Source of the DNA: a virus
Virus genome (UHGV): UHGV-1686243
Strand: one strand, 5' to 3'
DNA length: 24,442 nt
This document shows positions 1,858-21,736 of this stretch, in pieces (position 1 is the stretch's first letter; every line of letters starts with the position of its first letter). Below the pieces are notes generated by a model. That model was not told the DNA's origin. It ran no database searches and worked only from the letters and a program-made list of their open reading frames with translations. A program made the translations under genes and the position numbers.

Positions 1858-1864
1858 CCCATTA

Positions 1865-2148
1865 AAAAAATATCTGGAGCGCTGGAAGTAACGACTGGTT
1901 CCAGTGCATCCAGATAAGATGATTACTGTTCATGCTTCAAGAGCGAGCGCATACTGCATCCAGGCCAATCTAACTTTCATTCGACCAGAGTGTCACCTCT
2001 CAAAAGCATTTTTTAACTCTGGTCGTTCAGCTTTTTTGCCGCTCGCCTTATCCTCAAAAATTAGCTCACATCCTGCGCTTTCAAGGGCATTTCGTTGCAA
2101 AGCGGTGTTTTGGTCATTTGTTGATATGCGAATGTATCCAATAAGCAT
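1865..2148 (-). pseudogene. remnant of a Cin/Gin/Hin-family serine DNA invertase (frameshift, nonsense codon, internal and 3' deletions)
   Basis: Minus-strand ATG at 2148 gives MLIGYIRISTNDQNTALQRNALESAGCELIFEDKASGKKAERPELKNAFER-stop (stop at 1995-1993). This matches the invertase N-terminus as recalled for Gin (MLIGYVRVSTNDQNTDLQRNAL...), including the catalytic-Ser region. Further matches continue in the -1 frame (GDTLV, then KLD-W-PG-CSM with TGA where W is expected, then TSSAP-DIFLMG), and the remnant ends against the tfa stop. Confidence 0.75.
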
Positions 2149-2251
2149 ATGTCTCCCTTGTATGCTAAGGATACGATTCTAGAAGATGTCCTGTAAGGAA
2201 ATAACAAACTGACTAAGTTAGTGGCGCATTAGATGTTATTTCTGGAGGGGT

Positions 2252-2578: not shown

Positions 2579-3024
2579 TGGGTAACTTTGGGAATTATTT
2601 CATTTTTATCATGGCATTTGTTGCCATCATTGACCGTTTCATTTTTCGTCGCAAGAGTGTTGAGATTTTGAGTATTGGTGACGCTGTAGTGAAAGAATCC
2701 GCTATAGCGTTTCCTGTTTCGCTACGTGTTAAGCGAAGCTGGGTCAGCAATGCTCAAATCGAATATTGGTTGCAAGACCTGAAAAATCCATCTGTGGTTA
2801 TTTCAGGGAAAACGCGACCAGTTGACGCCTCAAAACGCGGTGAGAGAGAAGAGTATTTGCTCATCGATACGAAATATCTTGAGCCAACGAAGTGGGATCT
2901 GAAAGTCACATTGACTAACGGTAACTGCCGACTGAATCCGCTTTATCGCATTTTCCCTATCAATGACTGCATAGAGCGCCAGTTTACGATCGAAAAGCGT
3001 GAAGGAGACTGGGATGTCAAATAA
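2578..3024 (+). CDS. N-terminally membrane-anchored lysis-accessory protein (LydB-like position, putative)
   Basis: ATG overlaps the upstream stop, with RBS GGTGGAG. The 148-aa protein has one N-terminal hydrophobic helix (NYFIFIMAFVAIIDRFIF). Function is inferred only from synteny with the holin-like gene. Confidence 0.35.
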   Translation: MGNFGNYFIFIMAFVAIIDRFIFRRKSVEILSIGDAVVKESAIAFPVSLRVKRSWVSNAQIEYWLQDLKNPSVVISGKTRPVDASKRGEREEYLLIDTKYLEPTKWDLKVTLTNGNCRLNPLYRIFPINDCIERQFTIEKREGDWDVK

Positions 3025-3634
3025 GAATAATTATGTTCTTCTTAATTATGATGAGTTAAACGAAAAGGGGCTGGCAAAACTCGTCAAAGAAATCAGCAAA
3101 GGTGGTTACAAGATAGCGAGGGTGATCCCTGCAAGTAATGGCAGGAAGAAAGATGGGATCATGACGCGCACGTTTACCCTTATTGGTCTTGATGAACAGA
3201 CAATGGAAGTTCAGGTTAACGATACCGGTGATATATCTGGGATCAAACTGAATGGTAAAACAGTGCCGTTCAAGCCAGTAAAAACAATGTCGGCTTTGGG
3301 GCAATCTCTTGCGGCTTTATTTAATCGCGGAGCAACTTCTTTCCAGAAGTCATTAGCTCGAAAACTTGCTCGTGCAGCAAAAAATATTGATGACGAAAAT
3401 AAGAAGCGGCAGGGAGTTAAATCCAACGCTCAGAGATTAGCTGAAGCGAAAGAATCACGTGATGCACTCCGTGAAGATATCGCTAATGCTAACGACAAAC
3501 TGTCTAAACTCCAGAGCAAGTCAGACAAAGTAATGCAAGATACGGGTAACGTTAAAGCTGCCTTGTCTCAGGAAGTAGCTAAGACACGTGCTCTTAAAGA
3601 AGAAATCGCGCGCCTGGAGGATGAGCATGATTAA
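3014..3634 (+). CDS. Hdf-like protein (shorter paralog of the downstream DarA-like protein)
   Basis: RBS GGAG is 6 nt before ATG 3014. The 206-aa protein has a block ...MSALGQSLAALFNRGATSFQKSLARKL... and a K/E-rich coiled coil that parallel ...LSQVCQALSNLIERNSEKFKKAKERQD... and the coiled coil in the next ORF. Confidence 0.5.
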   Translation: MSNKNNYVLLNYDELNEKGLAKLVKEISKGGYKIARVIPASNGRKKDGIMTRTFTLIGLDEQTMEVQVNDTGDISGIKLNGKTVPFKPVKTMSALGQSLAALFNRGATSFQKSLARKLARAAKNIDDENKKRQGVKSNAQRLAEAKESRDALREDIANANDKLSKLQSKSDKVMQDTGNVKAALSQEVAKTRALKEEIARLEDEHD

Positions 3635-5552
3635 CAATCCTTTACGAATTAATATTCAGTCTACTTTTGCTGATACGATCCCCGGCTATATGCCAGGTCG
3701 CTGGTCTTCAGAAGAATTAAGCGAAGATGACCTGATTTTTGAGGCGGCGACCTTAGAAGATATTGAGCTTGCCTATATGGGCAATGAAATTCTGGTTGTG
3801 TCTGACGAAGCTATGTTTGAGTCCATAACTACAACCAGAATTCGGTTAGCTCAAACAATGCGAGCTTTCGTCCGTGCGCTGAATCGTGGCCTGAATGGTA
3901 CGAATATTATGGCAGGGACTGATGAAGCCGGGACCGATGAAAATGGACGTAATTGTATTGGTGGTGCGATTATCGGTCGTGTACGTCGGGTAGCTAATAT
4001 CCCTGTTTTGACCGCGCAGATACCGCTTACTGACGGGCAGAGTACAAGCATAATTTTCCACTCTCCAACAGCTGACGGGGCAAAAATAAAGAGTAACGAC
4101 GAGCTTGTTGCATTTCAGTTTTTACTTAATAAGCGTAACGTAACTCACGTTGTCGCCCCGATTGGTGGGAGAGATGTTTCTTTAAGCCAGGTATGCCAGG
4201 CGCTATCTAATTTGATTGAGCGTAACAGCGAAAAATTTAAGAAAGCAAAAGAGCGCCAGGACAAAATGAAGGCAGATATTGAGAGTTATCTCAATGAAGC
4301 AGATAAACTGGCAGAAGAACGGTCAATAACAATTGATCAGGTGGACGTTGCGCAACGTGGGCTGACTGAAAAGCGTGCTGCTCTTACGGAGATGCAAAAA
4401 AAACTTGATGCCCAGAAAGCCATCAACGAGGAATTACAAGAAAAACGCGATAAATTGTTGTCTGCTAAAGGTAAAAAAACGAAGGAGCGAGCGTTTAGTG
4501 ACCAGCTGCGACATGTAAAACATAATCTTGCCATTGACGGAAAAACAGTGCTGGATAATGGCGCTGAAGTTAATTATATCACGTCCGGCAGTGACAATTT
4601 CGTTACGATAGTAGCACCTGAAGGTAAATTCAGTATTGATGCCAGTGCTGTCAAAGGAGGCAGTTTGGCAGATGCTGCAACCAAATTACTTAAAGCCTAC
4701 CGAGAGCATAACGCAGATAAATATAAAGTTGATGTGTTACCAGGCCAGCAGGAAGACTCCGAACCACCACAGACAGCCCCCGAGACGAACCCAGTATCAC
4801 AACCAGAGAGCCAGGATGTAGGTAAATACCACTATGCACTTCAATCTCGCCCGGCTGGTGTTGGTGCTGTGCCGGATGGGAATAAAGCCGTGCTTGATCG
4901 TCCTGACCAGGCTGATCAGTATTACGAATATGCTCGTCACGGTATCATTACGTATGACCGTAAACTGACAGATGAAGAAGTCAGCCAGTACGAGTTGCTC
5001 TATCTTCCTGATGAAGATGAGCTGAAAGATTTTGCAGGCCAATTGGTTGTGTCCAGCATGTCGAAACATATTGATGGCTATGTAGACCTGTTTGGCAGTG
5101 ACCTGAAAACATTCAAGGCGCAAGTGAAAATTCTTTTCCGCAAAGCGTTTCCAAACGTGGCGTATCCACTTGGTGATGGGGAGAACCTTTTCATTATGGA
5201 CGTGTATAACGCCCTTCAAAATCATTCAAGCGAAGTAAAAACAGAGCATGTGGTTGAGCCGGAATCACAACCACAACCAGCACCAGAACAGGAGCCGGAG
5301 CCAGAAGAAGCTGGTGAATCAGCAAGTGAAGCTGATCAGGAGGCAGATAAAGCACTGGAGTACCTGAAATCCGTGCCGGAGCAGTTTACATCCCGCGATC
5401 TGACGGTCATCAGTGCTGAACTTGATCATGTGCAGGAAGCAGCAAACGCTCTAATCAGTGCAGGTCGATACGACGAGAACGAAGCCACTGTTGGTGCAGC
5501 AGTTGACTACCTGATCAACATTCTGGCTGAAATTCAGCAGGGAGGTGCTTGA
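3627..5552 (+). CDS. DarA-like capsid-internal protein (putative anti-restriction component)
   Basis: ATG 3627 lies 6 nt after GGAGG; ATG 3621 is an alternative start. The 641-aa protein has a central coiled coil and acidic Pro/Glu-rich linkers (EPESQPQPAPEQEPEPEE). It shows paralogy to the upstream ORF, and its size and position match recalled P1 DarA. Confidence 0.45.
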   Translation: MINNPLRINIQSTFADTIPGYMPGRWSSEELSEDDLIFEAATLEDIELAYMGNEILVVSDEAMFESITTTRIRLAQTMRAFVRALNRGLNGTNIMAGTDEAGTDENGRNCIGGAIIGRVRRVANIPVLTAQIPLTDGQSTSIIFHSPTADGAKIKSNDELVAFQFLLNKRNVTHVVAPIGGRDVSLSQVCQALSNLIERNSEKFKKAKERQDKMKADIESYLNEADKLAEERSITIDQVDVAQRGLTEKRAALTEMQKKLDAQKAINEELQEKRDKLLSAKGKKTKERAFSDQLRHVKHNLAIDGKTVLDNGAEVNYITSGSDNFVTIVAPEGKFSIDASAVKGGSLADAATKLLKAYREHNADKYKVDVLPGQQEDSEPPQTAPETNPVSQPESQDVGKYHYALQSRPAGVGAVPDGNKAVLDRPDQADQYYEYARHGIITYDRKLTDEEVSQYELLYLPDEDELKDFAGQLVVSSMSKHIDGYVDLFGSDLKTFKAQVKILFRKAFPNVAYPLGDGENLFIMDVYNALQNHSSEVKTEHVVEPESQPQPAPEQEPEPEEAGESASEADQEADKALEYLKSVPEQFTSRDLTVISAELDHVQEAANALISAGRYDENEATVGAAVDYLINILAEIQQGGA

Positions 5553-5920
5553 TGACCATCTCTGTTTTAGACCGCCTGAAATTAGGTAAAGAGCTATCAG
5601 ATCTAATGCAGGCGCAGAAAACTGCGCCAGTATTGCAACGCGTCACCATTGGTAAGCAGATTGTTGATGTGATGCTGAAATTGGGCCTGGGGACTGCCGC
5701 GCAACCGGCAGCGGAACCGCAACAACAGACTGATCCTGTTGTAGATGAAGTCCCTAAGATAGTGACTGACTTCCTGGGCGGTGTCTTCACAAAGTCCACA
5801 CAAATGGAATTTATTGATGCGCTGCGTGGGATCTCAAACTATGTTGGCGAGTTCCTTACGTTGGAGCAGGCTAAAGAGCAGACCATAAGCTGGGTGAAAG
5901 CTAACGGTTATGCCGGGTAA
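5552..5920 (+). CDS. small hypothetical protein (occupies the DdrA-like position)
   Basis: ATG overlaps the upstream stop (TGATG), with GGAGG 6 nt upstream. The protein is 122 aa with no recognisable motif. Confidence 0.4.
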   Translation: MTISVLDRLKLGKELSDLMQAQKTAPVLQRVTIGKQIVDVMLKLGLGTAAQPAAEPQQQTDPVVDEVPKIVTDFLGGVFTKSTQMEFIDALRGISNYVGEFLTLEQAKEQTISWVKANGYAG

Positions 5921-5945: not shown

Positions 5946-6014
5946 CACTTATCTGTTCTCACATAAATCACACACTTTTTACACTCACAGCTTTCTCTAT
6001 AGTTGGAGTGTATT

Positions 6015-7400
6015 TTGAACAAATCAGTTACTTCTGCGCTTTCCGGGGCCGCAGATATTAACAGCGTCATTGCTCTGGTTTCTTCATTAGAGAGGAAAGA
6101 AACACGCCTGGGGCGAAGTAGCTACGTAGTCACCAGCAAAGGTGCAGAGGTAAAGACGGCTTTTAAGGTCGTTGATGCCAGCAGTCTGATCATTTCGAAC
6201 AACCTTGACGGTACGATTAACCCGGCCTTCCCGGAAGAACTCCAACCACGAGATCGTACCCGGTTATCCAGCAAACTCCAGGTTAACCGTATTGCCTCCA
6301 ATTTACGCCCGGCACAATTAACGGATTCCGGTATGAGCAGCCACGGAGCGCCGATAGTTGGTCCGGACAACGTTGTTGAATCCGGCAACGGAAGGAGTAT
6401 GGGTATCTGGCGTGCCTATGAGCAAGGACAGGCGGATGAGTATCGCCAGTACCTGATCGACCATGCGAAAGAGTTTGGTCTGAATCCTGACGAAATTTCG
6501 CAAATGTCTATGCCCGTACTGGTGCGAGAAAGACTCACAGATGTAGACCGCGCTCAATTTGCCCGCGATTCAAACATTAGCGATCTGCAAGAGATGGCAG
6601 CAAGTGAAAAAGCGTATGCGGATGCGCAATTTCTCACTGAGAGCGTCATGGCGCTATTTAATCCTTCAGATGATGGAAATCTGCTGGCGCGGTCCAATGA
6701 TGCGTTTATTCGTGCGTTTTTGCGCGAAATTGGCGATACAGCGACAGCAGGCTTGCTTACTGCCGATGGGCGTCCCACGAAACAGCTTATCGATCGCATC
6801 CAGAATGCAATTTTTGCCAAAGCGTACAAGGATGAAAGGCTTGTTCGGCTGGTGTCGGAAGAGCCAGATCCGGAAATGCGTAATATCCTGACCGCATTAA
6901 ATACGGCAGCCAGCGATTTTGCGCAAATGCAGTCGCTGTCTGGCGACGCTCACCATGACGCAGTAACAGGCTTAGTGGACGGTATAGAGCAGGTTAATGG
7001 CCTGGATACACAGGCGATAGCAGCACTCCAGGAAGCAATTAATCTTGTACGTGAAGCCAAAGACAACGGTCAGGCCGTTGAAGAAGTGATCGCCCAAAGG
7101 GGGTTATTCGGCGACAGTACACCGGAAGCTGAGGCATTGGCGTTATTCATCGTAGCAAATAATCGCAGTGCGAAGCGTATGGGGGCAGCATTCAAAAAAA
7201 TGGCGCAAAAAATCAACGACGAGCTGACTCATAAACAACAGGCATTGGGCGATATGTTCGGCGGTGGCGATGTTGATCTGCGTCGTATTTTGTCTGCTGT
7301 ATCTGATGAAATTGAGGGTGAATTTGGCGAAGGGAAAGGTCTGAACTTTGCTATGTTTGAAAATTCTACAGATCTAAATAATTGCCGTACGGAAAACTAA
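6015..7400 (+). CDS. ParB/Srx-fold domain protein (possible DdrB-type virion protein)
   Basis: Start is uncertain: TTG 6015 has GGAG 7 nt upstream, TTG 6003 has none. The N-terminal region ...RLSSKLQVNRIASNLRPAQLTDSGMSSHGAPIVGPDNVVESGNGRSMGIWRAY... fits the ParB-nuclease pattern (S..G.PI.V...vv.G.hR..A). Confidence 0.4.
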   Translation: MNKSVTSALSGAADINSVIALVSSLERKETRLGRSSYVVTSKGAEVKTAFKVVDASSLIISNNLDGTINPAFPEELQPRDRTRLSSKLQVNRIASNLRPAQLTDSGMSSHGAPIVGPDNVVESGNGRSMGIWRAYEQGQADEYRQYLIDHAKEFGLNPDEISQMSMPVLVRERLTDVDRAQFARDSNISDLQEMAASEKAYADAQFLTESVMALFNPSDDGNLLARSNDAFIRAFLREIGDTATAGLLTADGRPTKQLIDRIQNAIFAKAYKDERLVRLVSEEPDPEMRNILTALNTAASDFAQMQSLSGDAHHDAVTGLVDGIEQVNGLDTQAIAALQEAINLVREAKDNGQAVEEVIAQRGLFGDSTPEAEALALFIVANNRSAKRMGAAFKKMAQKINDELTHKQQALGDMFGGGDVDLRRILSAVSDEIEGEFGEGKGLNFAMFENSTDLNNCRTEN

Positions 7401-7464
7401 ACCAACCGCTGAAATCACATACTGATTATGCTGCCGCAAAACTGGAAACAATTTGCGGTGATTC

Positions 7465-9147
7465 ATGGCAACGAAAGACAAAAACAAAGGCTTTCTGTCA
7501 GCATTGAAGAAAGCCTTCAACGGTGGTGATGTTACGCCCGCCGATCCGGTCGTTTTTACGAGCGGACATAGTGTCGTTGCTCGTTCCGGCCTGTCTGCTT
7601 TACGTCCAGGCATCCTGGGGAGCAATAGCGATGGCATGACGAGTGAAGCAGATTCAATTTCTTTATCCGCTGAACTGCCCGGCGAGCGCCTGCAAAAGTA
7701 CAACATCCTGGAAACGATGGCTAAAAGCCCGACTATCTCGACGGCTTTAAATATTCACATTGCACATGCGCTTGCGCCTTCAAAAAAAACCGGACAAGCA
7801 TTCATCCTTTCGCCAAAGGATGGTTCCGATGCCGAGGCAGTAAGTAGATGTGAAGAGTTAACCGCTGATTTGGGGGCGATGATTAATGACGGACTTCCTT
7901 CATGGGCCATGATTATGGCGATCTTTGGGGTGTCTTATGTCCGACCTTATGCTGAACAGGGCAGGGGGATAACAGGCATTGAGTCCAGTTATTACACTCT
8001 GCCACACTTCGTCCAGGAGTTTTATCGTGGTAGCCAGCTGGTAGGTTTCAGTGGTGATTACATTCTGGATACGCATAGTTTGCGCAGAGTAATAACCGAA
8101 CCGTGGAATCTGGTTTCCATGAAAAATCCCTATTGGACGCCACAGCATAAAGTTATTCCGGTTAGCTACGGCACAAAAGGGTACTCACTGTTAAGTGATC
8201 AGGCTGATAAGCCGTTAATGGAGACGCAGAATTACGGAACTTCATTCCTGGAATACAGCTATGAACCTTACCTTAATTTATGTGCTTCGCTCGCCGCGCT
8301 GAAATCAACGCGAAATAATGCAGCCAAAATTGACCGCCTGATTGCTCTTACGACGAACACACTGGACCCGGTTAATGCGGCGAACTATACGCGTGGCGTC
8401 AGCCAGGCATTGAAGCGTCATAGTGACCTGGTGGCGCAAAGGTCGATTAATGCCAACGCTATTCCGACTGTGCTTAACCATCTGATACCTGTTATGGGAG
8501 ACGGGAAGAACGGCATCACCATTGATACGCAATCCATACCCGCAGATATCAGTGGTATTGAAGACGTTATGTTTCACCTCCGGCAGCTTGCTGCAAGCCT
8601 CGGCATTGACGCAACAATGCTTGGCTGGGCTGATCAGATGAGCGGAGGGCTTGGAGAAGGCGGCTGGCAGCAAACTGCTATCCAGGCTGCATTGCGTGCG
8701 AACTGGATCAGACAGGCCGCCCAGCGAACTATTTATCGGCTTCTGGACATTCACCTCGCTTATAAATACGGCAAGGTTTACACCGAAACAAACCGCCCTT
8801 ATGACGTGCAATTCAACTCAATGAACACTGCTATCCAGGAAGAGGAAAACCGAGAACTGGATGCACGCGCCAACTTTGTTGCTGTCATCTCCCAAATTAT
8901 GGACCAGATCCAGAACAACCCGAAACTGGCTGGTAGCGACGCGTTTATGCGTTATCTGTTCACTGAGCAGTTGCACATCGACGATGACACTCTCAACACC
9001 ATGATCAAAGAGTTTAAGGCGAATGAATCAGAGCAAAACAACGAGCATGGTATGTACGAATCCGCGCCGTTGTCGTCCGGTGACGATCCGGAAAACTGGA
9101 CGCCAGAACAGTTAATAAACTTTGCAAAATTTGTGATGAGCAATTAA
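7465..9147 (+). CDS. portal-like head protein (putative)
   Basis: The 560-aa protein has no Walker A motif, so it is not a large terminase. Its size and its position directly before a coiled-coil protease/scaffold-like gene suggest a portal. The call is weak. Confidence 0.3.
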   Translation: MATKDKNKGFLSALKKAFNGGDVTPADPVVFTSGHSVVARSGLSALRPGILGSNSDGMTSEADSISLSAELPGERLQKYNILETMAKSPTISTALNIHIAHALAPSKKTGQAFILSPKDGSDAEAVSRCEELTADLGAMINDGLPSWAMIMAIFGVSYVRPYAEQGRGITGIESSYYTLPHFVQEFYRGSQLVGFSGDYILDTHSLRRVITEPWNLVSMKNPYWTPQHKVIPVSYGTKGYSLLSDQADKPLMETQNYGTSFLEYSYEPYLNLCASLAALKSTRNNAAKIDRLIALTTNTLDPVNAANYTRGVSQALKRHSDLVAQRSINANAIPTVLNHLIPVMGDGKNGITIDTQSIPADISGIEDVMFHLRQLAASLGIDATMLGWADQMSGGLGEGGWQQTAIQAALRANWIRQAAQRTIYRLLDIHLAYKYGKVYTETNRPYDVQFNSMNTAIQEEENRELDARANFVAVISQIMDQIQNNPKLAGSDAFMRYLFTEQLHIDDDTLNTMIKEFKANESEQNNEHGMYESAPLSSGDDPENWTPEQLINFAKFVMSN

Positions 9148-10359: not shown

Positions 10360-11322
10360 GTGAGTATTTTAAATTCAGTTTCAGTAACTTTCAACACTTC
10401 TGAGTATAAAAACAACACTGAATACCACAAAAAAATCAAAGGTCATCAGTTGAGTTTTTTTGCTCGTCATAGCGGTCTTCTTTCCCCTTCACATAGCGCC
10501 ATTATTGCCGAGTTCGCCAACCTGGCAGGGTCTACCGATGAATACATGATCCGTCGCTCATATGCTGATATGTCCGAGATTACAGGACGCAGTATTTCTA
10601 CTGTGCGCCGGGCATTTGCTGAAGCGACGAAGTGCGGAATGCTTGTTAAGCAACATCAGGTAGCGAATAACAATGCCCAGGTGTGTAACGTATATCGGTT
10701 TACGACACAATTTCTCCACTTCATTCATGTAGCAATGGAGATAGGGGGTAAGCAGGGCATCAAATTTGCCAACGCCACAAAACTGGTTAAGCAGTTGATT
10801 TCAAAGGTTCGTTATTTTTTTGAAACTGGGACCCCCCTGTTCAAATTGAACAAGTCCCCCCATGTTCAAAATGAACAGCCAATAGAAAATAAGAGTCACT
10901 CTATAGCCAAAAGAAGAGAAAGATCATGCGCGGTTCAGCCAAAGGCTTCACCAGCAGATAGTTCTCAAACGGATAACGTGGTACTGGATAAAAAACCAGT
11001 AACCAGGGAAGAACATACCAACCACTGCCTGGCGGCGGCAAAAGCGAGAGCTGCAAAGCGTCGTTCAGACGAGGGGCACGCAAAACGGCAGGCTCTGTAT
11101 CGTACCGCTGAAAAGCTGGCAAAAAAATTTGCATGGATACGTAGTGCCGCTACCGCAGTGAATAAGCCTAAACAATCCAGTGCCTTGGATTTCTCAATGG
11201 ATTATTCTGGCTCCCAGGGGTGTGCAACCATTGGTGAAGCCTTTGACCTGATGAAACAGCGTGGCTATCGGTCTGAATTTGACCGTGAGGATTGGTCAAT
11301 CCCGGCTGGCTTTAGGGGATGA
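10360..11322 (+). CDS. winged-helix DNA-binding protein, possible replication initiator (RepL-like?) or early regulator
   Basis: GTG start with weak RBS; the start is uncertain. HTH-like segment ADMSEITGRSISTVRRAFAEATKCGMLVK; basic C-terminal half. Internal palindromic repeats are listed in the findings. Confidence 0.4.
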   Translation: MSILNSVSVTFNTSEYKNNTEYHKKIKGHQLSFFARHSGLLSPSHSAIIAEFANLAGSTDEYMIRRSYADMSEITGRSISTVRRAFAEATKCGMLVKQHQVANNNAQVCNVYRFTTQFLHFIHVAMEIGGKQGIKFANATKLVKQLISKVRYFFETGTPLFKLNKSPHVQNEQPIENKSHSIAKRRERSCAVQPKASPADSSQTDNVVLDKKPVTREEHTNHCLAAAKARAAKRRSDEGHAKRQALYRTAEKLAKKFAWIRSAATAVNKPKQSSALDFSMDYSGSQGCATIGEAFDLMKQRGYRSEFDREDWSIPAGFRG

Positions 11323-11961: not shown

Positions 11962-12668
11962 TGGATATCTGCATTCTTGAAAAGCCATCAATGACCAGCA
12001 TTGAGATCGCGGAGCTGGTGGGAAGTCGTCCAGATAACGTAAAAATATCAATAGAGCGCCTGGCTAAATCTGGAGTTATTCAACTTCCTGCATTGCAGGT
12101 TTTCGAAAAAATCAATAACTTAGGACTACGCCGTAGTGTCGAGGCTTACGTCTTCGAAGGCGAGCAAGGCAAACGAGACAGCATTATTGTCGTTGCGCAG
12201 CTCTCTCCGGAATTCACCGCCCGGCTGGTGGACCGCTGGCGCGAACTGGAAGAACAAGTACGCCAGCCGTTGACCGAAATAGAGATGATCGCCGCAATGG
12301 CTGCAAATGCAGTTCAGCAGCAAAAGCGGCTTCATGCTGTTGAGTCAAAGGTTAGCCAGGTCGCTGAAACCGTCGAGCAAATCAAGAAGGGCAACATGCC
12401 AGATGGCTACATTGGCTACCGCCAGCTGGCTGCGAAATGTGGCCTGACTGAAGCCAAATGCCGCAACCTGGTTAACGCTTTCCGGATTCCCACCGATACG
12501 CATGAGTTTTTAACTCCAGAGGGGGTATTGTCGCGTCGTTCCATCGTGGCCTTATCTCCCTTCATGAATGCTTTTAACCGGATGATGTCGGAGGCAGAAC
12601 ACCGAGGAAAACGCTGGTATCACCCCAAAATGGGGCAATTCCAGGTGATCGGTTGGGGAGGTGAGTGA
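11961..12668 (+). CDS. Rha-family phage regulatory protein (candidate antirepressor)
   Basis: GGAGG is 8 nt before ATG 11961. The N-terminus ...MTSIEIAELVGSRPDNVKISIERLAKSG... matches the Rha signature as recalled (TS..IAE.fGkRHDNVlrdIr.L). Confidence 0.65.
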   Translation: MDICILEKPSMTSIEIAELVGSRPDNVKISIERLAKSGVIQLPALQVFEKINNLGLRRSVEAYVFEGEQGKRDSIIVVAQLSPEFTARLVDRWRELEEQVRQPLTEIEMIAAMAANAVQQQKRLHAVESKVSQVAETVEQIKKGNMPDGYIGYRQLAAKCGLTEAKCRNLVNAFRIPTDTHEFLTPEGVLSRRSIVALSPFMNAFNRMMSEAEHRGKRWYHPKMGQFQVIGWGGE

Positions 12669-12873: not shown

Positions 12874-12898
12874 GCCCCGGCCTGGCCGGGGCTTTTTT
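12874..12898 (+). terminator. intrinsic terminator ending the antirepressor operon
   Basis: GCCCCGG-cctgg-CCGGGGC followed by TTTTTT. It abuts the stop of the convergent minus-strand gene. Confidence 0.65.
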
Positions 12899-13383
12899 CA
12901 TGCCTCATTAGTTGAGGTTGCTGCGTCTCCGACTGGTAACAGAGCGGTATTGCGTGGTTCGCCAGCAGGCCAGCGATAGCCAGACACTCTTGATGTTGGG
13001 AATGCGCGAATATTAACCGCATCCCCCTGGTTCCCACCCAAGACAAGCAGATCGCCATTGGCGCGGCGTCCGACAACGAAGCCTACGTGCCCACCGCCTA
13101 CGCGGGTAAATACAACGATACATCCGTATGCCGGTGTATCTAATTTCTCGCCCCAATCCAGATAGGATTTTGCCGACTCAAATCTTGTTGAGCGGATGCC
13201 TACACGTTCCAGCATTGCACCGACAAATGCTGCGCACCACGGCGTTTCATCGTCTTTAATTCCGCCGCGCTTGATGTCGCGCCAGAACTGAACGATTTCA
13301 GGGTTGTGTTTAGCGCCTTTTATTTCAGTCAAGCCAATGTGCTTACGGGCTTCAATTAGCCAGCGAGGTTCAATGTTTGCCAT
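12898..13383 (-). CDS. CHAP / NlpC-P60-like peptidoglycan hydrolase (TIGR02594-like phage protein)
   Basis: Minus-strand ATG at 13383 with GGGAGA RBS. Cys/His motifs ...ETPWCAAFVGAM... and ...GGGHVGFVVGR... are typical of this phage-associated peptidase family. Confidence 0.6.
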   Translation of the reverse strand: MANIEPRWLIEARKHIGLTEIKGAKHNPEIVQFWRDIKRGGIKDDETPWCAAFVGAMLERVGIRSTRFESAKSYLDWGEKLDTPAYGCIVVFTRVGGGHVGFVVGRRANGDLLVLGGNQGDAVNIRAFPTSRVSGYRWPAGEPRNTALLPVGDAATSTNEA

Positions 13384-13534
13384 ATTTTTCTCCCGGTCAT
13401 GGGTTAATAAGTAGGCAAACTATGGGGAGTATGTGATTTTGACGGTAGTATCGTCCCCCTGAAAATAACATTCTCCATACCCTCTCAACCGTACCGCATA
13501 GCGGAATTTTTTACGGTTTAGAGGGGGAAATCCT

Positions 13535-16500
13535 TTGGACAAACTACTTCATTCAATCAGTGAAGCCTCCAGCTTAGGCGAACTGATTGAAATTGTTAGT
13601 CGGTTGCATAAATTACGTGCTGTTGCGACCTTTGGCGTCAGGAAAGCCGATGGCGTCAGTATTCAGAAAACACGCCGGGCAGCAAACAATGCCGCAGTAA
13701 ATCTTCTTAATTCCCTTCCGCCCGGCTTCGATGGGGCGAAATTAACTGACAAACAACGTCAGATTCTTGCTGGGTATACCGGTGAAGGCGGCCTGACAGA
13801 TGGTGAGGGCAGCCAATACGAATACTACACGCCACAGTTTATGGCTGAAGGTATATGGGATCTGTTTGCTGACTACGGTATTGATGGCGGGCACGTACTG
13901 GAACCATCAGCGGGCACAGGTATTTTCCAGGAGACAAAACGGCAGGGCATGATAATGACCAGCGCCGAACTGTCTCCGATTTCCGGTCGAATAAACCAGC
14001 TTTTGCACCCGGAAGACGATGTGAATATCGGGGCGTTTGAGGCGCTGGCAGCGAAAGACGCAATGTATGATCACGCTGTTGGTAACGTACCGTTTGGTGA
14101 AGGGCGTTCCGGTGTCGCCGGGCTTGATCCGGCATATGCAAACGAGAAGAACGTTGGCAATTACTTTGTGCTGCGCACGATCGACAAGGTTAAGCCTGGT
14201 GGGCTTATCGTATTGGTGGTGCCAAATGGCATGACCGATGGTACGAAATATAAAAAATTGCGCGATAAAGTCAGCCGTAAAGCGGAATTTTTGGGCGCAC
14301 ATCGTATGCCTTCCGGTACGTTCAGCGAATCCGGTACAGATACCGTGGTGGACGTATGGGTATTGCGTAAACACCCGGAAACCTTCCTGGAGATGATCCC
14401 CGACACGGATGATTCAACACTCAAATCGGCAAACGTCCTTTGGGATACCTTCCTCAAAGGAAAATGGTTTACAACCGAAGGGAAGCGATTTGTTTACGGC
14501 GACATGGAACGTACCAGCTTCCGCAATACCCTGGTGGTGAAAAAAGACGGTCGTGTATCCAATGAGTCGATGAAAACCGCGCTATCTCGTCGCTTTGATA
14601 GTCGCATCAATTGGGATTTGCTCGGCGTAACTACTCAGGCATGGCAGGGCGCGAAAGTGGGCGATAAACGCCTTGTAGGCGGTATCTGGCATGAGTTTGA
14701 TGGTCTGAAATGGGTTAAGGACACGACAACCAAATCCTCCGCGCTTGATGTAAGTCGATATGGTGTTTCGACGTTTGGCGATCTGCAGATCGCGTTTCAG
14801 TCAACAAATGGCATTCTGGCTTTGTCATGGGACCAGATATCGGCGATCGCGTCTGACTATCCATCGGTTGTCAGTGATGAAGTGGCAGCAATGATTCGCT
14901 TTGCTGGCAAGCAGCGAGAAAAAGACAGGGAGCGCGTTATGCGCGGTGCACTGATAGGTCAGTTGATCAACAAGGCACTTGATTTGCGTAACCTGGGGGT
15001 GAACGTTGATGACAAACTGGCAGATGCATCCCGCCTGGCGGCAGCAGAAGTTGCGAAGTATGGACCACCGCACGCGATTAAGCTGAATGGGCTTGCTGAA
15101 GCTGGCGCTAAAAACTGGATGACGTTCACTGGCAATGTGAAACAGGATGGTTCCACTTCTGACCTTCTGGCAGGGCGACTTGATGTAACGGATGGTGCTG
15201 CCGGTATTGACTTTACGCGTCCTGAACAAGTGATAGCACATCTTTTTAGTGATGTAGCCCTTAATCCTATAACGCTGGGCGACTTTCGTGAGGCGTTTGC
15301 TGGTGAACTGCCAGAGGACGACGACGCGGCCCTTGAATACCTGGCGAAATTTGATGATATCGCTATTGATGGGTATGGCTGTCTGCTGCCGATGGACCGC
15401 GCCACCAGCGGCGATGTTGCAACCAAAACAGCACTGCTGGTGGGCTGGCGTGATGCGTCAACAGGTGAGCAGAAAGCGAACTTTGAGCGTCAGTTGGCGA
15501 AAATCGAAGAGAAACGTATTTTCACGCCACTAAATAAAGTCACCGTTAATCTGAATGCCCGCTGGCTGGATCGCCGCTTGATAAAAGAGTTCCTGGCAGA
15601 GCAGGGCTATGACGAGTTTAAGTACACTGAACCTGATCTGAAGGTCGTCGATGGCATTCTGGTATCTCCGGACGATTACGAAGGTAAGGACGGTGTATTT
15701 ACCGGCTATCAGCTACGAACCGTAAACGGCAAAAACGGGAATGAGTTCAAGAAGGCCAACAATAAAGACGGCTTCCTGAACCAGTTAGAAAACTACCTGA
15801 ACGGTGTTAAACCGCGTGGGCAGAACGCTAACGAGTACCTGGATAAAATTGCTCAACTGGAAGTTAGCTTTAACGACTGGTTACGCACCCACCCGCAGGC
15901 GGATCAGATAGCCCGTGACTATAACGACGCATTCAATGGTTTCATTCCGTTCACACATTCTGACGCACCGCTAGGCCTGGAAGGGATTAGTGGAAAGCGC
16001 ATTCCTCTGACTTATCAGAATGAAGAAGTTCGCCGCTTGTCAGAAGATGGGCGTGGCATCATGGGATTTGGTACCGGGCTGGGTAAAACCACGACCGCGC
16101 TTGCGCTTGAGGCGTATAACTTCGAAACAGGTCGCACTAAACGCACGTGTATTGTTGTTCCGAAGGCGGTTTATCAGAACTGGTATCACGAGGCACAGAG
16201 TTTCTACAGTGCTGATGCCTTCGCCAATATGATGTTTATCGGTTTGGATGAAGTTCGTGATGACGGCGGAAATATTCTTACCGCGCCAGTGCTTGATGAA
16301 AATGGCGAACCACGCCTCGACAGTAACGGGCAGCCTCTTACCAGAAATGTTGTGAAAGAGTCCGCCAGCGCCGTTATCGTTCAGCGCATGAACATGATCC
16401 CGTCGTCAAATTGGCGAACGGTCATCATGACAAAAGAACAATTCGCGTCTATCCCGCTACGAGAAAAAACCATCGAGGAGAACTCACAGCAAGCTGTCTT

Positions 16501-19500
16501 TAATGCTGTGGAAATGGGGCGTCTTGACCTGGCGTCCGGTAAACACCGTGATGCGCAGAAGAAGAACAAGATTAAGGATCAGGCCGCGAATACCGGTACA
16601 ACGAAGAAGCAGAATATCCCGTACTTTGAGGATATGAACTTCGATAGCGTGATTGCCGACGAGGGGCATAACTACCGCAACTCCTTTAATGCCGGGCGTG
16701 AAGCGGGACAACTGGCATATTTGCCTAACCCGGCAGTATCCAAGATGGCCCGCGACATGGCTGTAAAAGCTGCGTACATGATGAAACGCAACAACGGGCG
16801 TGGTGTAGTCATGCTGACGGCAACTCCGCTGGTGAACAGTCCGATTGATGCCTTCAACATGCTGTCTACTGTCATTCCGCAGGAAGAGTGGATGCGCATG
16901 GGCATCATTACGCCTGATGATTTCGTTCGTGTGTTTGGCAAAACAGCCACAGTTCAGGTCCAGAAAATTTCCGGGGAAGTGGAAGAGAAGCAGGGGCTGG
17001 TGGGCTTCCAGAACCTTGACGGCCTGCGTGGTATTTTCCATCGTTGGACCACTCTGAAGACTGCTGCAGATGTCGGAGCGACGGTTAAAATTCCAGACAT
17101 CATCGAGAACACCTTGCAGATCCCGATGACAGGGGAGCAGGAGACTGCTTATGAAGAGCTTCGTAAGCGTGCTCAGGAGTTAAGTCGCAATGATGAGCTG
17201 ACAGTCGATGAAAACGGGCATATCACTAACGACAAACCGGATGATTTCATCTTCTCCATCATCCGCGACATGGACAAGGTTGCTATAGACCCGGATCTGT
17301 ATGCCAGTGCGATTACATTCCAGTTCCCCGTTGAGCTTGCAGACCAGGTAAAAGCTATTGCTGATGCCTTGCCAAAAGTAGCTGGCGGTAAAGTGGCAGA
17401 TGATGTTGATGAGGCCGAGGAAGACGGCGCTGGCGGGCTGGTCAGTACGCGTACCAGCAAGGTAGTGAAGACCGCTTTTAGTGAACATCCGACGCATGTT
17501 GAAATACGTGCCAGCATTGAACTGGAAGCTGAAATACTGAAGGCCATTGCGGCTGCCGGTATTGATATGCAGCAGGTATCGCACCCCATCCCGCCGAAGT
17601 ATGCCGCGCTGATCGAAAATCTTCGTGAAGGTCTGAAGAACGGTAAGCAGATCGTCTTTATTGATGAAAAAGCCCAGCACCAGAAGCTGCGCCGTATTAT
17701 CGCCAGTGCACTGCAAATGCCGGAGCAGGAGATTGGCATTATCAATGCGACGACAGTTAGCCAGGCTGGCGGCATCAAGCTGAAGAAGGTGAATAAGCCG
17801 ACCGAACCTACTCCAAACAAAAACGGTGAATACAAAGAAGGGGCATGGGAAACCTACTACAGCAAACTTGCACAATATGAGGATTATCTCTCAGCTAAAA
17901 ATGATGCTGGCCTTGAGGGCATGGAAGGTATTGCCGCCGACTATAACGAAGGTCGCACGCGCATCATAATCTGTAACAAGAAGGCTGAAGTAGGTATTAA
18001 CCTGCACATCGGGACAACCGATATCCATCACCTGACACTACCCTGGACACCAGCCAGTATCGACCAACGAAATGGGCGCGGTGCGCGCGTAGGTTCACCG
18101 CAAGAAAAGGTCAATGTTCACTACTATTGTGGCAAAGGCACATTCGACGACTTCCGTCTGGATACGCTGAAACGTAAGAAAGACTGGATCAAGATGGTGA
18201 TGACATCCGACATGTCAGAGATCGCCAATGGTGATGCGGATGATGCTGATGAACGCGCCATTATGCTGGCGGCAAACCCGGAAGAACGCCGCGCAATCAT
18301 GGCTCGCCAGGCGCAAGAGCGTGAAGAACGTCTGAAACTGAAAGCACAGCGCGAGGCCAACAATGCTCTCGATATCTACCTGAAAGCGGCAAACGCCGCC
18401 GGAAAAGATATCGGCATGATGGAGACAGAACTGAAAAGCGCGATGGAACAGATAGAGCATTACCAGCGCAATCTTGACGACCTGATAAAAGCGGGTACGA
18501 ACAGGAATGGGCAAAAATACGCGCTTGAGCAGTTGAGTAGCTACAGAAAACGTGCGCGGGTGCTGAAGTTTGCGATCACCAGGGCAAAAGACGCGGATAC
18601 CATAATGAAACGCTCTCGTGGTGATGTGGAGCGCGCTATTAAGTCTGGTGTGCTGGATATCAGTATCGATGTTATTCAGAACCCACAGGAATATATGCGC
18701 ACTGACAAGAATATCCTGTTGCATAAAGGTAGTTATTACCGTGCAGTCATTGATGATCGCGAAACAACAGCGATTGTCCGGGTGGAAAAAATTGACGGTG
18801 AAAAAGCACAATACCTCTGCCGTATCGCCTGGCTGGATAGAGCAAGTCGTTACGCTCGAGCACCGGGGTCAATCGTTACATTGCCGTTTGACTCTGTGAT
18901 TGAAGCGGTAACTTTTGAAGAGGGGGTTGCTGAATCGCGCGCAACGGCTGCGCGTGGTGTTCAGTGCCACCAGCTATCAACAATACTTACTCGCGATCAG
19001 TTCTATGATGCTATTCGCAATGGGGTAATGAATGTTATTGCTGGTAAACCTGGTAATGCATGGGGCGGTGGGTCAGCTATTAAATACTGGGCATATCGCA
19101 CAGATGATGGTCAGATCGCGCTGTCATCGGCCTATGATGGCGTGATAGGCCAAAAAATCGGGCGAGCATCGGATATAGCACCTGAGCGATGGATATATCC
19201 TGATGGCAACGACGAGGCGCTGAAGCGTGAAGTGGCAAAAATACAAGCCAGTGATAACCCGCTGAATATCGTGGACGGCGAGGGATTCCTCCAGGCATTG
19301 TATGGGTATGATTACACCCAGGGAATGCAGGCATGGGGCGCACAGGCAACGATGGATGATGTTGCCCAGGAGTTCGAAAACTGGATGGCTGGGCGTGGTC
19401 TGTCAGGTCGTTCGCTTAATAAAGTCACTTCTGAAGATATTCTTAGCTTGTTCCGCAAACCGTCCGGAGAAGGTCTGGAATCATTCTGGAGGACCGTGCT

Positions 19501-20371
19501 GGCATACCGTTTATTCCAGGGCAGGATGAAAGCCTTTAGCAATATCGATGATATTGAACGGATGTTTAATCAGGTCAAGATCGCGAAAATTAAGGCGAAG
19601 ATCGAAAAAACACGTTCTGCGCTGGTGGCCTGGCGCGATGCATTGTTTGAGCAATATAAATCACTCAGTGATGCAGATGGATGGGCGGCATTGGAACAGC
19701 TGGCGAATAATGGGGTAGATGGAGCGAAACTCGCCATTGTTCAGGCTGATAACCCCCTGGAATCACCGGCAGCACAGTGGATTAAGGTGGGGGCTGTCAT
19801 CAATGCATTTGATGAAAAACACATTAGTAAGGACGATTTTGCTGATGCTGTTTCTGTTAATCGCCTGGTAGAAATGGCTACCCGCCGCGCACGTGAGTTG
19901 AAAGACGGCGACTATGTGAATGAGTTGCCGGATACGCTCAAATCGGCAACGTGGCAGGACTATGTATCGCTGAAAAACGGCGGGGCCACTGAATCAGAGA
20001 TCGCGGAAAGGCTTGAGCAGGCTGAAAGCAAAAGAGAAGAGCAGGCGGCAGTGGCTGAAGCCAGAGCTGATGAAGCGGCGAATGATGACTATATCATTGT
20101 GGTTAATGATAAGCCGATTCGCGCTAAGGCGCGTGTTCGCGGGCGCTGGTGGAGCGTCAGCGAGGACGTTGGCGCGGTTTATCTCATTGCCGACCAACCA
20201 GGTTCCTCGACAATACGGAACGCCAAAGACGCGATTAAGAAGATTGGCGGGCGTTTCTGGAATTTTGAAGCAAACCCGGTTGCTGATGTGAACTTTGACC
20301 GTCCTGCATGGATGGTATCTACGCGTTACTCGGTAGATGAACTGCGTAAAATAATCGCCGATGCGGCCTAA
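13535..20371 (+). CDS. darB: DarB-like giant anti-restriction protein: N6-adenine methyltransferase fused to an SF2 (DExH/SNF2-like) helicase
   Basis: TTG start 7 nt after a strong AGGGGG RBS. 2,278 aa. MTase motif I VLEPSAGTGIF and motif IV-like GNVPFGE; helicase motifs GFGTGLGKTTTALAL (I), VIADEGHNYRN (II), VMLTATPLVNS (III), IDQRNGRGARVG (VI). Size and architecture match recalled P1 DarB (about 2,255 aa). The gene symbol is assigned by architecture and synteny, not by alignment. Confidence 0.7.
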   Translation: MDKLLHSISEASSLGELIEIVSRLHKLRAVATFGVRKADGVSIQKTRRAANNAAVNLLNSLPPGFDGAKLTDKQRQILAGYTGEGGLTDGEGSQYEYYTPQFMAEGIWDLFADYGIDGGHVLEPSAGTGIFQETKRQGMIMTSAELSPISGRINQLLHPEDDVNIGAFEALAAKDAMYDHAVGNVPFGEGRSGVAGLDPAYANEKNVGNYFVLRTIDKVKPGGLIVLVVPNGMTDGTKYKKLRDKVSRKAEFLGAHRMPSGTFSESGTDTVVDVWVLRKHPETFLEMIPDTDDSTLKSANVLWDTFLKGKWFTTEGKRFVYGDMERTSFRNTLVVKKDGRVSNESMKTALSRRFDSRINWDLLGVTTQAWQGAKVGDKRLVGGIWHEFDGLKWVKDTTTKSSALDVSRYGVSTFGDLQIAFQSTNGILALSWDQISAIASDYPSVVSDEVAAMIRFAGKQREKDRERVMRGALIGQLINKALDLRNLGVNVDDKLADASRLAAAEVAKYGPPHAIKLNGLAEAGAKNWMTFTGNVKQDGSTSDLLAGRLDVTDGAAGIDFTRPEQVIAHLFSDVALNPITLGDFREAFAGELPEDDDAALEYLAKFDDIAIDGYGCLLPMDRATSGDVATKTALLVGWRDASTGEQKANFERQLAKIEEKRIFTPLNKVTVNLNARWLDRRLIKEFLAEQGYDEFKYTEPDLKVVDGILVSPDDYEGKDGVFTGYQLRTVNGKNGNEFKKANNKDGFLNQLENYLNGVKPRGQNANEYLDKIAQLEVSFNDWLRTHPQADQIARDYNDAFNGFIPFTHSDAPLGLEGISGKRIPLTYQNEEVRRLSEDGRGIMGFGTGLGKTTTALALEAYNFETGRTKRTCIVVPKAVYQNWYHEAQSFYSADAFANMMFIGLDEVRDDGGNILTAPVLDENGEPRLDSNGQPLTRNVVKESASAVIVQRMNMIPSSNWRTVIMTKEQFASIPLREKTIEENSQQAVFNAVEMGRLDLASGKHRDAQKKNKIKDQAANTGTTKKQNIPYFEDMNFDSVIADEGHNYRNSFNAGREAGQLAYLPNPAVSKMARDMAVKAAYMMKRNNGRGVVMLTATPLVNSPIDAFNMLSTVIPQEEWMRMGIITPDDFVRVFGKTATVQVQKISGEVEEKQGLVGFQNLDGLRGIFHRWTTLKTAADVGATVKIPDIIENTLQIPMTGEQETAYEELRKRAQELSRNDELTVDENGHITNDKPDDFIFSIIRDMDKVAIDPDLYASAITFQFPVELADQVKAIADALPKVAGGKVADDVDEAEEDGAGGLVSTRTSKVVKTAFSEHPTHVEIRASIELEAEILKAIAAAGIDMQQVSHPIPPKYAALIENLREGLKNGKQIVFIDEKAQHQKLRRIIASALQMPEQEIGIINATTVSQAGGIKLKKVNKPTEPTPNKNGEYKEGAWETYYSKLAQYEDYLSAKNDAGLEGMEGIAADYNEGRTRIIICNKKAEVGINLHIGTTDIHHLTLPWTPASIDQRNGRGARVGSPQEKVNVHYYCGKGTFDDFRLDTLKRKKDWIKMVMTSDMSEIANGDADDADERAIMLAANPEERRAIMARQAQEREERLKLKAQREANNALDIYLKAANAAGKDIGMMETELKSAMEQIEHYQRNLDDLIKAGTNRNGQKYALEQLSSYRKRARVLKFAITRAKDADTIMKRSRGDVERAIKSGVLDISIDVIQNPQEYMRTDKNILLHKGSYYRAVIDDRETTAIVRVEKIDGEKAQYLCRIAWLDRASRYARAPGSIVTLPFDSVIEAVTFEEGVAESRATAARGVQCHQLSTILTRDQFYDAIRNGVMNVIAGKPGNAWGGGSAIKYWAYRTDDGQIALSSAYDGVIGQKIGRASDIAPERWIYPDGNDEALKREVAKIQASDNPLNIVDGEGFLQALYGYDYTQGMQAWGAQATMDDVAQEFENWMAGRGLSGRSLNKVTSEDILSLFRKPSGEGLESFWRTVLAYRLFQGRMKAFSNIDDIERMFNQVKIAKIKAKIEKTRSALVAWRDALFEQYKSLSDADGWAALEQLANNGVDGAKLAIVQADNPLESPAAQWIKVGAVINAFDEKHISKDDFADAVSVNRLVEMATRRARELKDGDYVNELPDTLKSATWQDYVSLKNGGATESEIAERLEQAESKREEQAAVAEARADEAANDDYIIVVNDKPIRAKARVRGRWWSVSEDVGAVYLIADQPGSSTIRNAKDAIKKIGGRFWNFEANPVADVNFDRPAWMVSTRYSVDELRKIIADAA

Positions 20372-20407
20372 CAGATAAGGAGCGGCCCCAACTGGGGCCG
20401 AATTTGA

Positions 20408-21105: not shown

Positions 21106-21241
21106 AAATAACAGGTTGGGTAAATGCCATGCGATTTACCCTCCTTGTTGATTAAGGTCACTCTTTACTCTAAAAGCAAATCCGACCTGTTGCATATAGA
21201 CCATCCTTGAGTAGTATCTCTCTTGTTTTACAAATCTAACG

Positions 21242-21736
21242 TTGTTGTTATTATTTCGCATATTTACTATCAATGGGTGTGTTAGAAAAATAGCGCGAAA
21301 GAGAAGGCGTCGCAGTGAATATTCTGAAACATCCCCACATGCCGCAGCTCTTAGAGAACTGGAGAAAAACCCAGATCTAATCAAAAGGAACCATGAGCAT
21401 TACGAGCAGGTTCGCGTCCTGGACTGGATGTATCGCAATATGCGTTATGTGTATGAGCATACTCACGCCACTCCAAACGGTGGCCTGCGAGGCATAAGGA
21501 CGGCAATAAAAATGGTGGCAGAGGGCCAAAAGAAGGGATATCCCGATCTTTCTATAGACCTTGCTTGTGGGGGATACCACGGAATGCGCATTGAGATGAA
21601 ACATGGGAGAAATCGCCTGACTCCCGAACAACTCGTCTGGATGACTCGCCTCACAGAAGCCGGTTACTACTGCTTTGAGGCGCGCAGTGCCGCTGAAGCC
21701 ATAAAAGCTATCACGGAGTATGTTTGTCTTGATTAA
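21242..21736 (+). CDS. VRR-NUC domain nuclease (PD-(D/E)xK superfamily)
   Basis: C-terminal ~100 aa ...GYPDLSIDLACGGYHGMRIEMKHGRNRLTPEQLVWMTRLTEAGYYCFEARSAAEAIKAITEY fit the VRR-NUC signature. The start is uncertain: there is no in-frame ATG or GTG before the domain, only TTG 21242/21245, and a motif copy lies inside the predicted N-terminus. Confidence 0.55.
   Translation: MLLLFRIFTINGCVRKIARKRRRRSEYSETSPHAAALRELEKNPDLIKRNHEHYEQVRVLDWMYRNMRYVYEHTHATPNGGLRGIRTAIKMVAEGQKKGYPDLSIDLACGGYHGMRIEMKHGRNRLTPEQLVWMTRLTEAGYYCFEARSAAEAIKAITEYVCLD
21279..21289 (+). promoter_or_regulatory. GTGTTAGAAAA motif copy upstream of / within the 5' end of the VRR-NUC frame
   Basis: Exact motif match. Confidence 0.3.

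Follow-up and report, generated by a model that had tools for sequence, protein, structure and literature searches.

A probable DarB orthologue joining methyltransferase and SNF2 helicase domains in a D6-like, P1-related phage-plasmid of Escherichia coli

Introduction

DarB of bacteriophage P1 is a head-internal virion protein that is present in approximately 40-45 copies per virion, and the DarB phenotype needs a second P1 protein, Ulx (PMC9024508, PMC12810830, PMC12707154). Residues 1-30 of P1 DarB suffice to send a reporter protein into the capsid (PMC9024508). According to Iida 1987, as cited in PMC12707154, the protection by the Dar proteins against EcoK- and EcoB-type restriction is exerted only in cis, on the packaged DNA. 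The mechanism of DarB 'has not been defined' (PMC11109961). Here we describe a large gene in UHGV virus genome UHGV-1686243, from which one stretch of 24,442 nucleotides (hereafter the window) was analysed. The window belongs to a D6-like phage-plasmid of E. coli, and the gene is very probably the darB of this P1-related element, encoding an orthologue of P1 DarB.

Results

The gene was found to be a single open reading frame (ORF) that encodes a protein of 2,278 aa (~252 kDa) and starts with TTG (Table 1), as had been read in an earlier note made from the letters of the window alone. Its DNA is 99.2% identical to gene D6_15 of phage D6 (MF356679; ASR76325.1), and the protein shares 2266 of its 2278 residues (99.5%) with D6 gp15, leaving 12 substitutions. 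The deposited annotation of D6_15 reads 'defense against restriction; similar to P1 gene darB', and the identity of the gene is thus already known, having been deposited and named in phage D6. P1 DarB (2,255 aa, YP_006479.1) was collinear with the protein from end to end, with 40% identity over 2,372 columns and 1523 bits in BLASTP, and the collinearity was kept to the last residue in a global alignment. The identity to P1 DarB varied along the protein: up to residue 300 it was 49-55%, in the middle region 29-46%, in the N lobe of the helicase 48-68% and in its C lobe 55-57%. Past residue 1600 it dropped to 20-29%, with 20-25% over the last 680 aa, and the alignment was still collinear. In the PHROG database phrog_1685 was matched over the full length and phrog_11801 over residues 2-1473, and PHROG 10089, annotated as 'DarB-like antirestriction', matched residues 94-299. 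The earlier note had already proposed a DarB-type protein, and this proposal is borne out by the near-identity to D6 gp15, the collinearity with P1 DarB, the ulx gene downstream and the presence of homologues of Hdf, DarA, DdrA and DdrB in the window.

The TTG start of darB is well supported by several observations. It is the earliest start codon 3' of the in-frame upstream stop, it is preceded by a Shine-Dalgarno sequence (Table 1), and residue 1 pairs with Met1 of P1 DarB (MDKL and MNKL, respectively). The phage D6 record starts the gene at this TTG too, and the codon is conserved in a plasmid allele of 92% identity. We used one D6-type plasmid allele, 92.4% identical to the gene, for all ratios of nonsynonymous to synonymous substitution rates (dN/dS) given here. 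For the whole gene the ratio was 0.088, which indicates purifying selection.

The N-terminal helical region is 49% identical to P1 DarB over residues 1-100, the N-termini being MDKLLHSISEASSLGELIEIV here and MNKLSMGVFRCSSVSEILKYI in P1, and helices were modelled with AlphaFold2 at residues 2-9, 14-25 and 43-60. The region corresponds, by position only, to the LPD36 region of Iyer et al. (PMC5512222). It is followed by a domain of the gamma-class N6-adenine DNA methyltransferases, in which the N-terminal TP cap (YYTP at residue 97), motif I (EPSAGTGIF at 123) and motif IV (GNVPFG at 183) were recognised. The AlphaFold2 model of residues 1-833, with a predicted local distance difference test score (pLDDT) of 74, gave 218 Foldseek matches with E <= 0.001, including type I HsdM (the best match, E 4.6e-8), BsaXI, M.TaqI, M.BseCI and CamA. 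In a comparison of the family profile with PDB sequences, the best solved relative was M.EcoKI, the HsdM of EcoKI (E 1.4e-5). Pfam scored the domain exactly at the limit of its N6_Mtase family, and this borderline call holds because the fold matches and the family profile support it independently.

Motif IV of the methylase clade has the consensus NPP(Y/F) (Iyer et al., PMC5512222). The GNVPFG of the protein described here is shared by P1 DarB and four other relatives, and GNPPFG was seen only in the relative from Vibrio; NVPF, which had been called unusual in the earlier note, therefore departs from the consensus but is the norm within the family. Among the seven relatives compared, no variation was seen in motif I, in Asn and Phe of motif IV or in the TP cap, in an alignment that leaves out the internal-deletion proteins P0013, P0030 and P0038. 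The methyltransferase domain had a dN/dS of 0.083.

These results bear on an alternative in which the protein is a DarB orthologue but its methyltransferase domain is no working methylase. Protection of the incoming DNA would then rest purely on ATP-driven translocation or on a roadblock by which type I complexes are displaced or occluded, and the HsdM-like domain would be a module that binds DNA or interacts with restriction-modification (R-M) enzymes. Such a role would fit the fixation of NVPF across the enterobacterial relatives, the Pfam score at threshold and the lack of a recognisable target-recognition domain (TRD) or specificity subunit in the Pfam and Foldseek searches, as well as reviews that favour physical shielding by DarB (PMC12707154) and the lack of any report of methylation by DarB (PMC11109961). 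The invariant motif residues and the strong purifying selection on the domain speak against it, as does the NPPF of the Vibrio relative, whose surroundings are otherwise identical. Among the active adenine-N6 methyltransferases of the Erm/KsgA family there are also some with a motif IV of the type N-hydrophobic-P-Y/F. Overall we consider a DarB with an inactive methyltransferase domain possible, if rather doubtful.

Between the methyltransferase and the helicase lie residues 301-820, which had no Pfam match and no family assignment; the dN/dS of this middle region was 0.049. The SNF2-type helicase or translocase that follows consists of an N lobe (residues 821-1230) with motifs I (GFGTGLGKT at 844), Ia (VVPK at 874), II (DEGH at 1042) and III (TATP at 1095), an insert (1231-1350) and a C lobe (1351-1560) with motifs V (at 1481) and VI (QRNGRGARVG at 1511). 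The earlier reading of a methyltransferase and a full SF2 motif set in one polypeptide is confirmed by the six helicase motifs together with methyltransferase motifs I and IV. Searches with profiles of both domains, which the earlier note had suggested as a check, gave scores for both in Pfam: 46.7 bits for SNF2-rel_dom, 24.2 for ResIII and 24.3 for Helicase_C, with N6_Mtase reaching only its cut-off. On the other hand, the earlier note had seen no motif past about residue 1400 and had assumed a tail of ~900 aa. Since motifs V and VI lie at 1481-1520 and the DrmD-type profiles extend to ~1660-1670, the unassigned tail is ~610-720 aa long. The ~520 unassigned residues between methylase and helicase had also been overlooked.

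The helicase was matched in part by DrmD, DpdE and ZorD (NCBIfam, PADLOC), far below the family cut-offs, and the SNF2 C lobe with the helical extension behind it (residues 1468-1670) aligned with residues 557-755 of DrmD. Such matches, to BrxHII as well as to the other three profiles, could point to a plasmid-borne defence or restriction enzyme that protects the lysogen, either type ISP/IIG-like or a DISARM-like fusion of a methylase with DrmD, and the combination of a methylase with an SF2 helicase does resemble that of type I, III and ISP enzymes. The scores of the DrmD profile NF038317 (44.1 bits against a cut-off of 610) and NF038318 (29.8 against 950) argue against this. In the window annotation we found no DISARM partner genes (drmA/B/C, drmMI/II), no hsdS-like neighbour or other specificity subunit and no nuclease domain nearby. 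Within the protein no specificity subunit and no nuclease or TRD family was detected by Pfam, NCBIfam or PADLOC, and no nuclease fold was among the structural matches, a cryptic TRD in residues 301-820 being possible. The protein is, moreover, orthologous over its full length to P1 DarB, on which experiments have been done, and a late-promoter motif and the linkage to ulx tie the gene to virion assembly. A defence enzyme is in our view extremely improbable.

The late-promoter motif lies upstream of darB (Table 1). It was found that the pattern AAATMACA-N7-TA(nnnT) has exactly 5 matches in the window, compared to 0.10 expected, and that all of these are intergenic and on the plus strand. The sites (2199-2215, 5965-5981, 7412-7428, 13463-13479 and 21106-21122) are each located just 5' of a late operon, at lydA, ddrB, prt, darB and pmgM, respectively. 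Two further matches were found in the other 50 kb of D6, both on the minus strand and in the right orientation (12496-12512 and 21129-21145 of that stretch), directly 5' of two late operons, those of the pmgB-sit tail genes and of the major capsid gene. The pattern is absent from the annotation of MF356679, and judged by its sequence and distribution it is a candidate D6-type late promoter; its position supports a late expression of darB together with the virion genes. A late promoter of the P1 type (ACAAGTGAYTT-N4-TAnnnT, from the -22 and -10 boxes of four annotated P1 promoters) was also sought. It had no match in the window, and loose matches were fewer than expected by chance.

Between the darB stop and the ulx start codon there is a Shine-Dalgarno-like AAGGAG followed by a hairpin (Table 1) with a minimum free energy of -16.2 kcal/mol (z -4.2). 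P1 has the same layout with another stem, namely AGGAG, CGCCCGG-TTCG-CCGGGCG, 9 nt and ATG (10436-10468 of the P1 stretch, minus strand). This conservation suggests that the hairpin may bring the Shine-Dalgarno sequence near the ulx start or may stabilise the 3' end of the darB mRNA.

The Chi sequence GCTGGTGG was enriched in the window, with 12 sites compared to 0.68 expected, 9 of them on the plus strand and 6 inside darB. P1 darB carries 11 Chi sites (PMC11109961), and cloned P1 darB DNA relieves EcoKI restriction through Chi and EcoKI sites without the protein, even when the fragments contain premature stops (PMC11109961). Both observations fit an explanation in which the anti-restriction effect of darB comes mostly from the DNA: restriction alleviation that depends on ClpXP would be set off by Chi sites, and the protein would do something else, head assembly being one example. 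However, the effect was described for multicopy plasmids and is treated by its authors as an artefact to be controlled for and not as the mechanism of the phage (PMC11109961), and the Dar protection in cis, as far as Iida 1987 is cited in PMC12707154, needs packaged proteins. The 6.8 kb ORF has been kept at a dN/dS of 0.088, which points to selection on the DarB protein. We consider an effect based mostly on the DNA very unlikely.

The C-terminal tail was modelled with AlphaFold2 as residues 1554-2278 from a 16-row alignment, with a mean pLDDT of 83.2 and a predicted TM-score (pTM) of 0.44, as expected for several domains. The model was divided into four parts (Table 1). The beta-barrel of part 2 showed a weak likeness to Tudor, LSm and KOW domains in Foldseek, with a TM-score (target) of 0.64-0.80 over ~60 residues that was not significant (E 0.4-1.6), and it is the most divergent segment between the D6-type alleles (dN 0.14). 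It is followed in the model by three short helices and beta hairpins. The start of the all-helical domain is straddled by a YPD..D...K motif (residues 1888-1897), which corresponds to the invariant columns Y335, P336, D337, D340 and K344 in an alignment of nine relatives. The most conserved motif of the tail, AGG..L.D..GK.GAL..AK..LK..GA.F...F.G.WW.I, is part of the alpha/beta end domain and was present in all nine aligned relatives. Between the D6-type alleles dN was 0 at a dS of 0.37 in the last 98 residues, and the segments of the tail had dN/dS values of 0.09-0.18. The tail is clearly functional and under purifying selection.

No significant structural relatives of the tail were found with Foldseek, Pfam gave no match in it at E <= 1, and a tail profile compared with PDB sequences gave coiled-coil noise only. 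A phmmer search with residues 1601-2278 against 1.84 billion cluster representatives returned 27 clusters, in which all full-length matches were DarB-sized (2,192-2,302 aa). Two word-indexed searches with the tail found only close D6-type or P1-type fragments, and a nine-sequence profile added none, so that the distant relatives came from the phmmer search. Six tail relatives were looked up. Their contigs measure 15-97 kb, and four of these measure 86-97 kb, as a P1-like phage-plasmid does; a gene context like that of P1 was confirmed for one of the six (Vibrio). Extra effector domains in the tail, which the earlier note had thought possible, are unsupported, as no enzymatic fold was detected in the confident model. 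The tail most likely serves as a module for structure or for interaction.

A more speculative and rather unlikely reading is that the fast-diverging ~720-aa tail could be a DarB-specific adaptor that chooses which host restriction systems or capsid partners are engaged. It follows from the identity between the P1 and D6 tails of 20-25%, compared to 55-68% in the enzymatic cores, from the lack of structural relatives and from the restriction of the tail to DarB-sized proteins. In a bolder version DarB would borrow or jam host type I components on the entering DNA; it is prompted by an HsdM-like methylase domain within a protein that counters EcoKI-family enzymes, and the evidence points neither way.

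In public E. coli assemblies we observed in-frame deletion or fusion derivatives of P1-type darB (P0013, P0016, P0017, P0030 and P0038). Some of these join the methylase N-terminus directly to the tail, and others fuse DarA_N and DarA_C to the DarB tail. The derivatives suggest recurrent internal deletions in P1-like plasmids.

The hdf-darA-ddrA-ddrB genes of the window end ~6.1 kb upstream of darB, compared to a gap of 7.3 kb in P1. The P1 order is likewise lydA-lydB-hdf-darA-ddrA-ddrB, then prt/pro and then darB-ulx. The earlier note had regarded the gene order as unlike that of P1; the two orders are essentially the same. The ddrB homologue is at most 465 aa long (454 aa in the D6 annotation), less than half of P1 ddrB (24542-27529, ~995 aa), with the ddrB-ParB domain kept. 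Compared with D6, the window has no counterpart of ~1.08 kb that holds orf24 and orf23 between ddrB and prt (window 7401-7464, D6 stretch 6788-7931). It also has no cin invertase adjoining lydA, unlike D6 (window 89-2182, D6 stretch 1-1641). In place of cin, an ORF for a tail-fibre C-terminus (89-1447) and a tail-fibre assembly ORF (1423-1857), both on the plus strand, face lydA, and an unmatched 92-aa ORF (1904-2182) comes after the latter. A gene for a CHAP-domain peptidoglycan hydrolase (12898-13383, minus strand) lies divergently upstream of darB, and downstream there is a pmgM homologue (21242-21736, plus strand) with a VRR-NUC nuclease domain (Pfam, 27 bits).

The Vibrio relative keeps prt/pro, darB and an ulx-like gene, with darA/hdf nearby, and the gene directly 3' of its darB encodes a protein with 33% identity to the ulx homologue of the window. 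In this locus from Vibrio parahaemolyticus a C5 cytosine DNA methylase gene (PF00145; 4498-5985 of the locus) on the same strand ends 15 nt before darB, and the ulx-like gene is followed by a hok/gef toxin gene and an IS605-family TnpB. In PLSDB, 96 plasmids covered at least 80% of the window and 113 carried at least 80% of darB. Of 5,426 complete E. coli genomes, 98 contained the part of darB that encodes the tail, in every case on a plasmid. Nearly identical copies of the gene are thus common.

Table 1. Features of darB and its surroundings in the window, with residue numbers of DarB where applicable.
Feature	Residues	Position	Strand	Basis and remarks
hdf		2999-3634	+	Mechanical ORF; Pfam DarA_N; D6 annotation
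darA		3588-5552	+	Mechanical ORF; Pfam DarA_N plus DarA_C; D6 annotation
ddrA		5549-5920	+	Mechanical ORF; D6 annotation
ddrB		6003-7400	+	Mechanical ORF; Pfam ddrB-ParB; D6 annotation
Candidate D6-type late promoter of darB		13463-13483	+	AAATAACA, 7 nt, -10-like hexamer TACCCT; ends 51 nt 5' of TTG
Shine-Dalgarno sequence of darB		13521-13527	+	GAGGGGG, 7 nt 5' of TTG; read off the sequence
darB	1-2278	13535-20371	+	TTG start, TAA stop
N-terminal helical region	1-90	13535-13804	+	Homologous to N-terminus of P1 DarB
Gamma-class N6-adenine DNA methyltransferase domain	91-300	13805-14434	+	Pfam, Foldseek, family profile, motifs
Middle region	301-820	14435-15994	+	Mixed beta/helical in the model; 29-46% identical to P1 DarB
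SNF2-type helicase/translocase	821-1560	15995-18214	+	Pfam, motifs
Tail part 1, long helical hairpins/coiled coil	1559-1703	18209-18643	+	AlphaFold2 model
Tail part 2, small beta-barrel	1720-1792	18692-18910	+	AlphaFold2 model, strands 167-239
Tail part 3, all-helical domain	1894-2178	19214-20068	+	AlphaFold2 model 341-625, pLDDT mostly 84-93
Tail part 4, C-terminal alpha/beta domain	2186-2278	20090-20368	+	AlphaFold2 model 633-725
AAGGAG and 7-bp GC-rich hairpin		20377-20400	+	AAGGAG at 20377-20382, hairpin at 20383-20400, then 7 nt and ATG; between darB stop and ulx ATG
ulx homologue, 144 aa		20408-20842	+	46% identity to P1 Ulx; D6 annotation
Chi sites		9545, 12014, 12224, 15402(-), 15436, 16996, 18967(-), 19621, 20145, 22564, 23640, 23704(-)	+ unless marked	

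Discussion

From the experiments on P1 (PMC9024508) we infer that the DarB described here is packaged into the virion and is active against restriction. The gene would be transcribed late, from the D6-type late-promoter motif that the head, tail and lysis operons carry as well, and the first ~30 residues would direct the protein into the procapsid. Tens of copies would then be ejected with the DNA and would act in cis on that DNA, protecting it from type I restriction of the EcoK/EcoB family. The SNF2 motor may move on the incoming duplex as the methyltransferase methylates adenines; alternatively, it may block or strip type I complexes. One of these modes, tracking plus methylation or blocking, is most likely, as the architecture suggests (Iyer et al., PMC5512222).

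Several points weigh against this reading. No experiments on this protein or on D6 DarB were found in the literature, and packaging, ejection, action in cis and the target R-M families are all transferred from P1 DarB, which is only 40% identical overall and 20-25% identical in the tail. No DarB is known to have methyltransferase or ATPase activity, and the relief of restriction by cloned P1 darB DNA does not need the protein (PMC11109961). The Pfam N6_Mtase score is 20.4 bits, exactly the cut-off, and motif IV is NVPF, not NPP(Y/F). The late-promoter motif was derived post hoc from the intergenic regions of the window itself, the two outside sites in D6 being the only independent check.

In comparison with known systems, the closest is D6 gp15, which has the same length and TTG start and the same flanks, with the CHAP hydrolase upstream and ulx and orf13 downstream. 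The window differs from D6 in the 12 substitutions and in having neither orf23/orf24 between ddrB and prt nor cin beside lydA. P1 DarB shares the NVPF motif IV, identical helicase motifs, the homologous N-terminus and ulx directly 3' of the gene, with the Dar operon and prt/pro nearby. However, P1 DarB starts with ATG, whereas TTG is used here, and the prt-pro genes are divergent from darB in P1 but co-oriented here, with repL and icd/ant between prt-pro and darB. The P1 record contains only a predicted sigma-70 promoter for darB, whereas a D6-type late-promoter motif precedes the gene here.

Among more distant systems, the methylase-SNF2 'dyad' polyvalent proteins (Iyer et al. 2017, PMC5512222), which include giant DarB-like proteins of podophages such as Parlo and PEp14, have an N-terminal helical domain, an EcoKI/TaqI-like methyltransferase with the TP cap and a SWI2/SNF2 module with helical inserts, and they likewise share an inferred delivery with the invading DNA (PMC5512222). 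They differ by carrying many extra effector domains and by lacking the DarB tail. HsdM (M.EcoKI, PDB 2ar0/2y7c; 7eew) provides the closest solved relatives of the methyltransferase domain by fold and profile, but the domain studied here has no HsdS partner and no C-terminal assembly region of HsdM, is only 13-20% identical and is fused to a helicase. In P1, the protein to which this domain belongs acts against EcoKI. With DrmD, DpdE, ZorD and BrxHII the alignment covers the SNF2 C lobe and the helical extension, whereas the scores fall far short of the cut-offs, and context and remaining architecture are different. In RefSeq such proteins are labelled only 'SNF2-related protein' or 'DEAD/DEAH box helicase family protein', which makes the DarB identity easy to overlook in plasmid annotation. 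For the mechanism of DarB and the role of its tail, the alleles of P1 and D6 make a natural comparison pair: their enzymatic cores are conserved, and the tail is strongly diverged but constrained.

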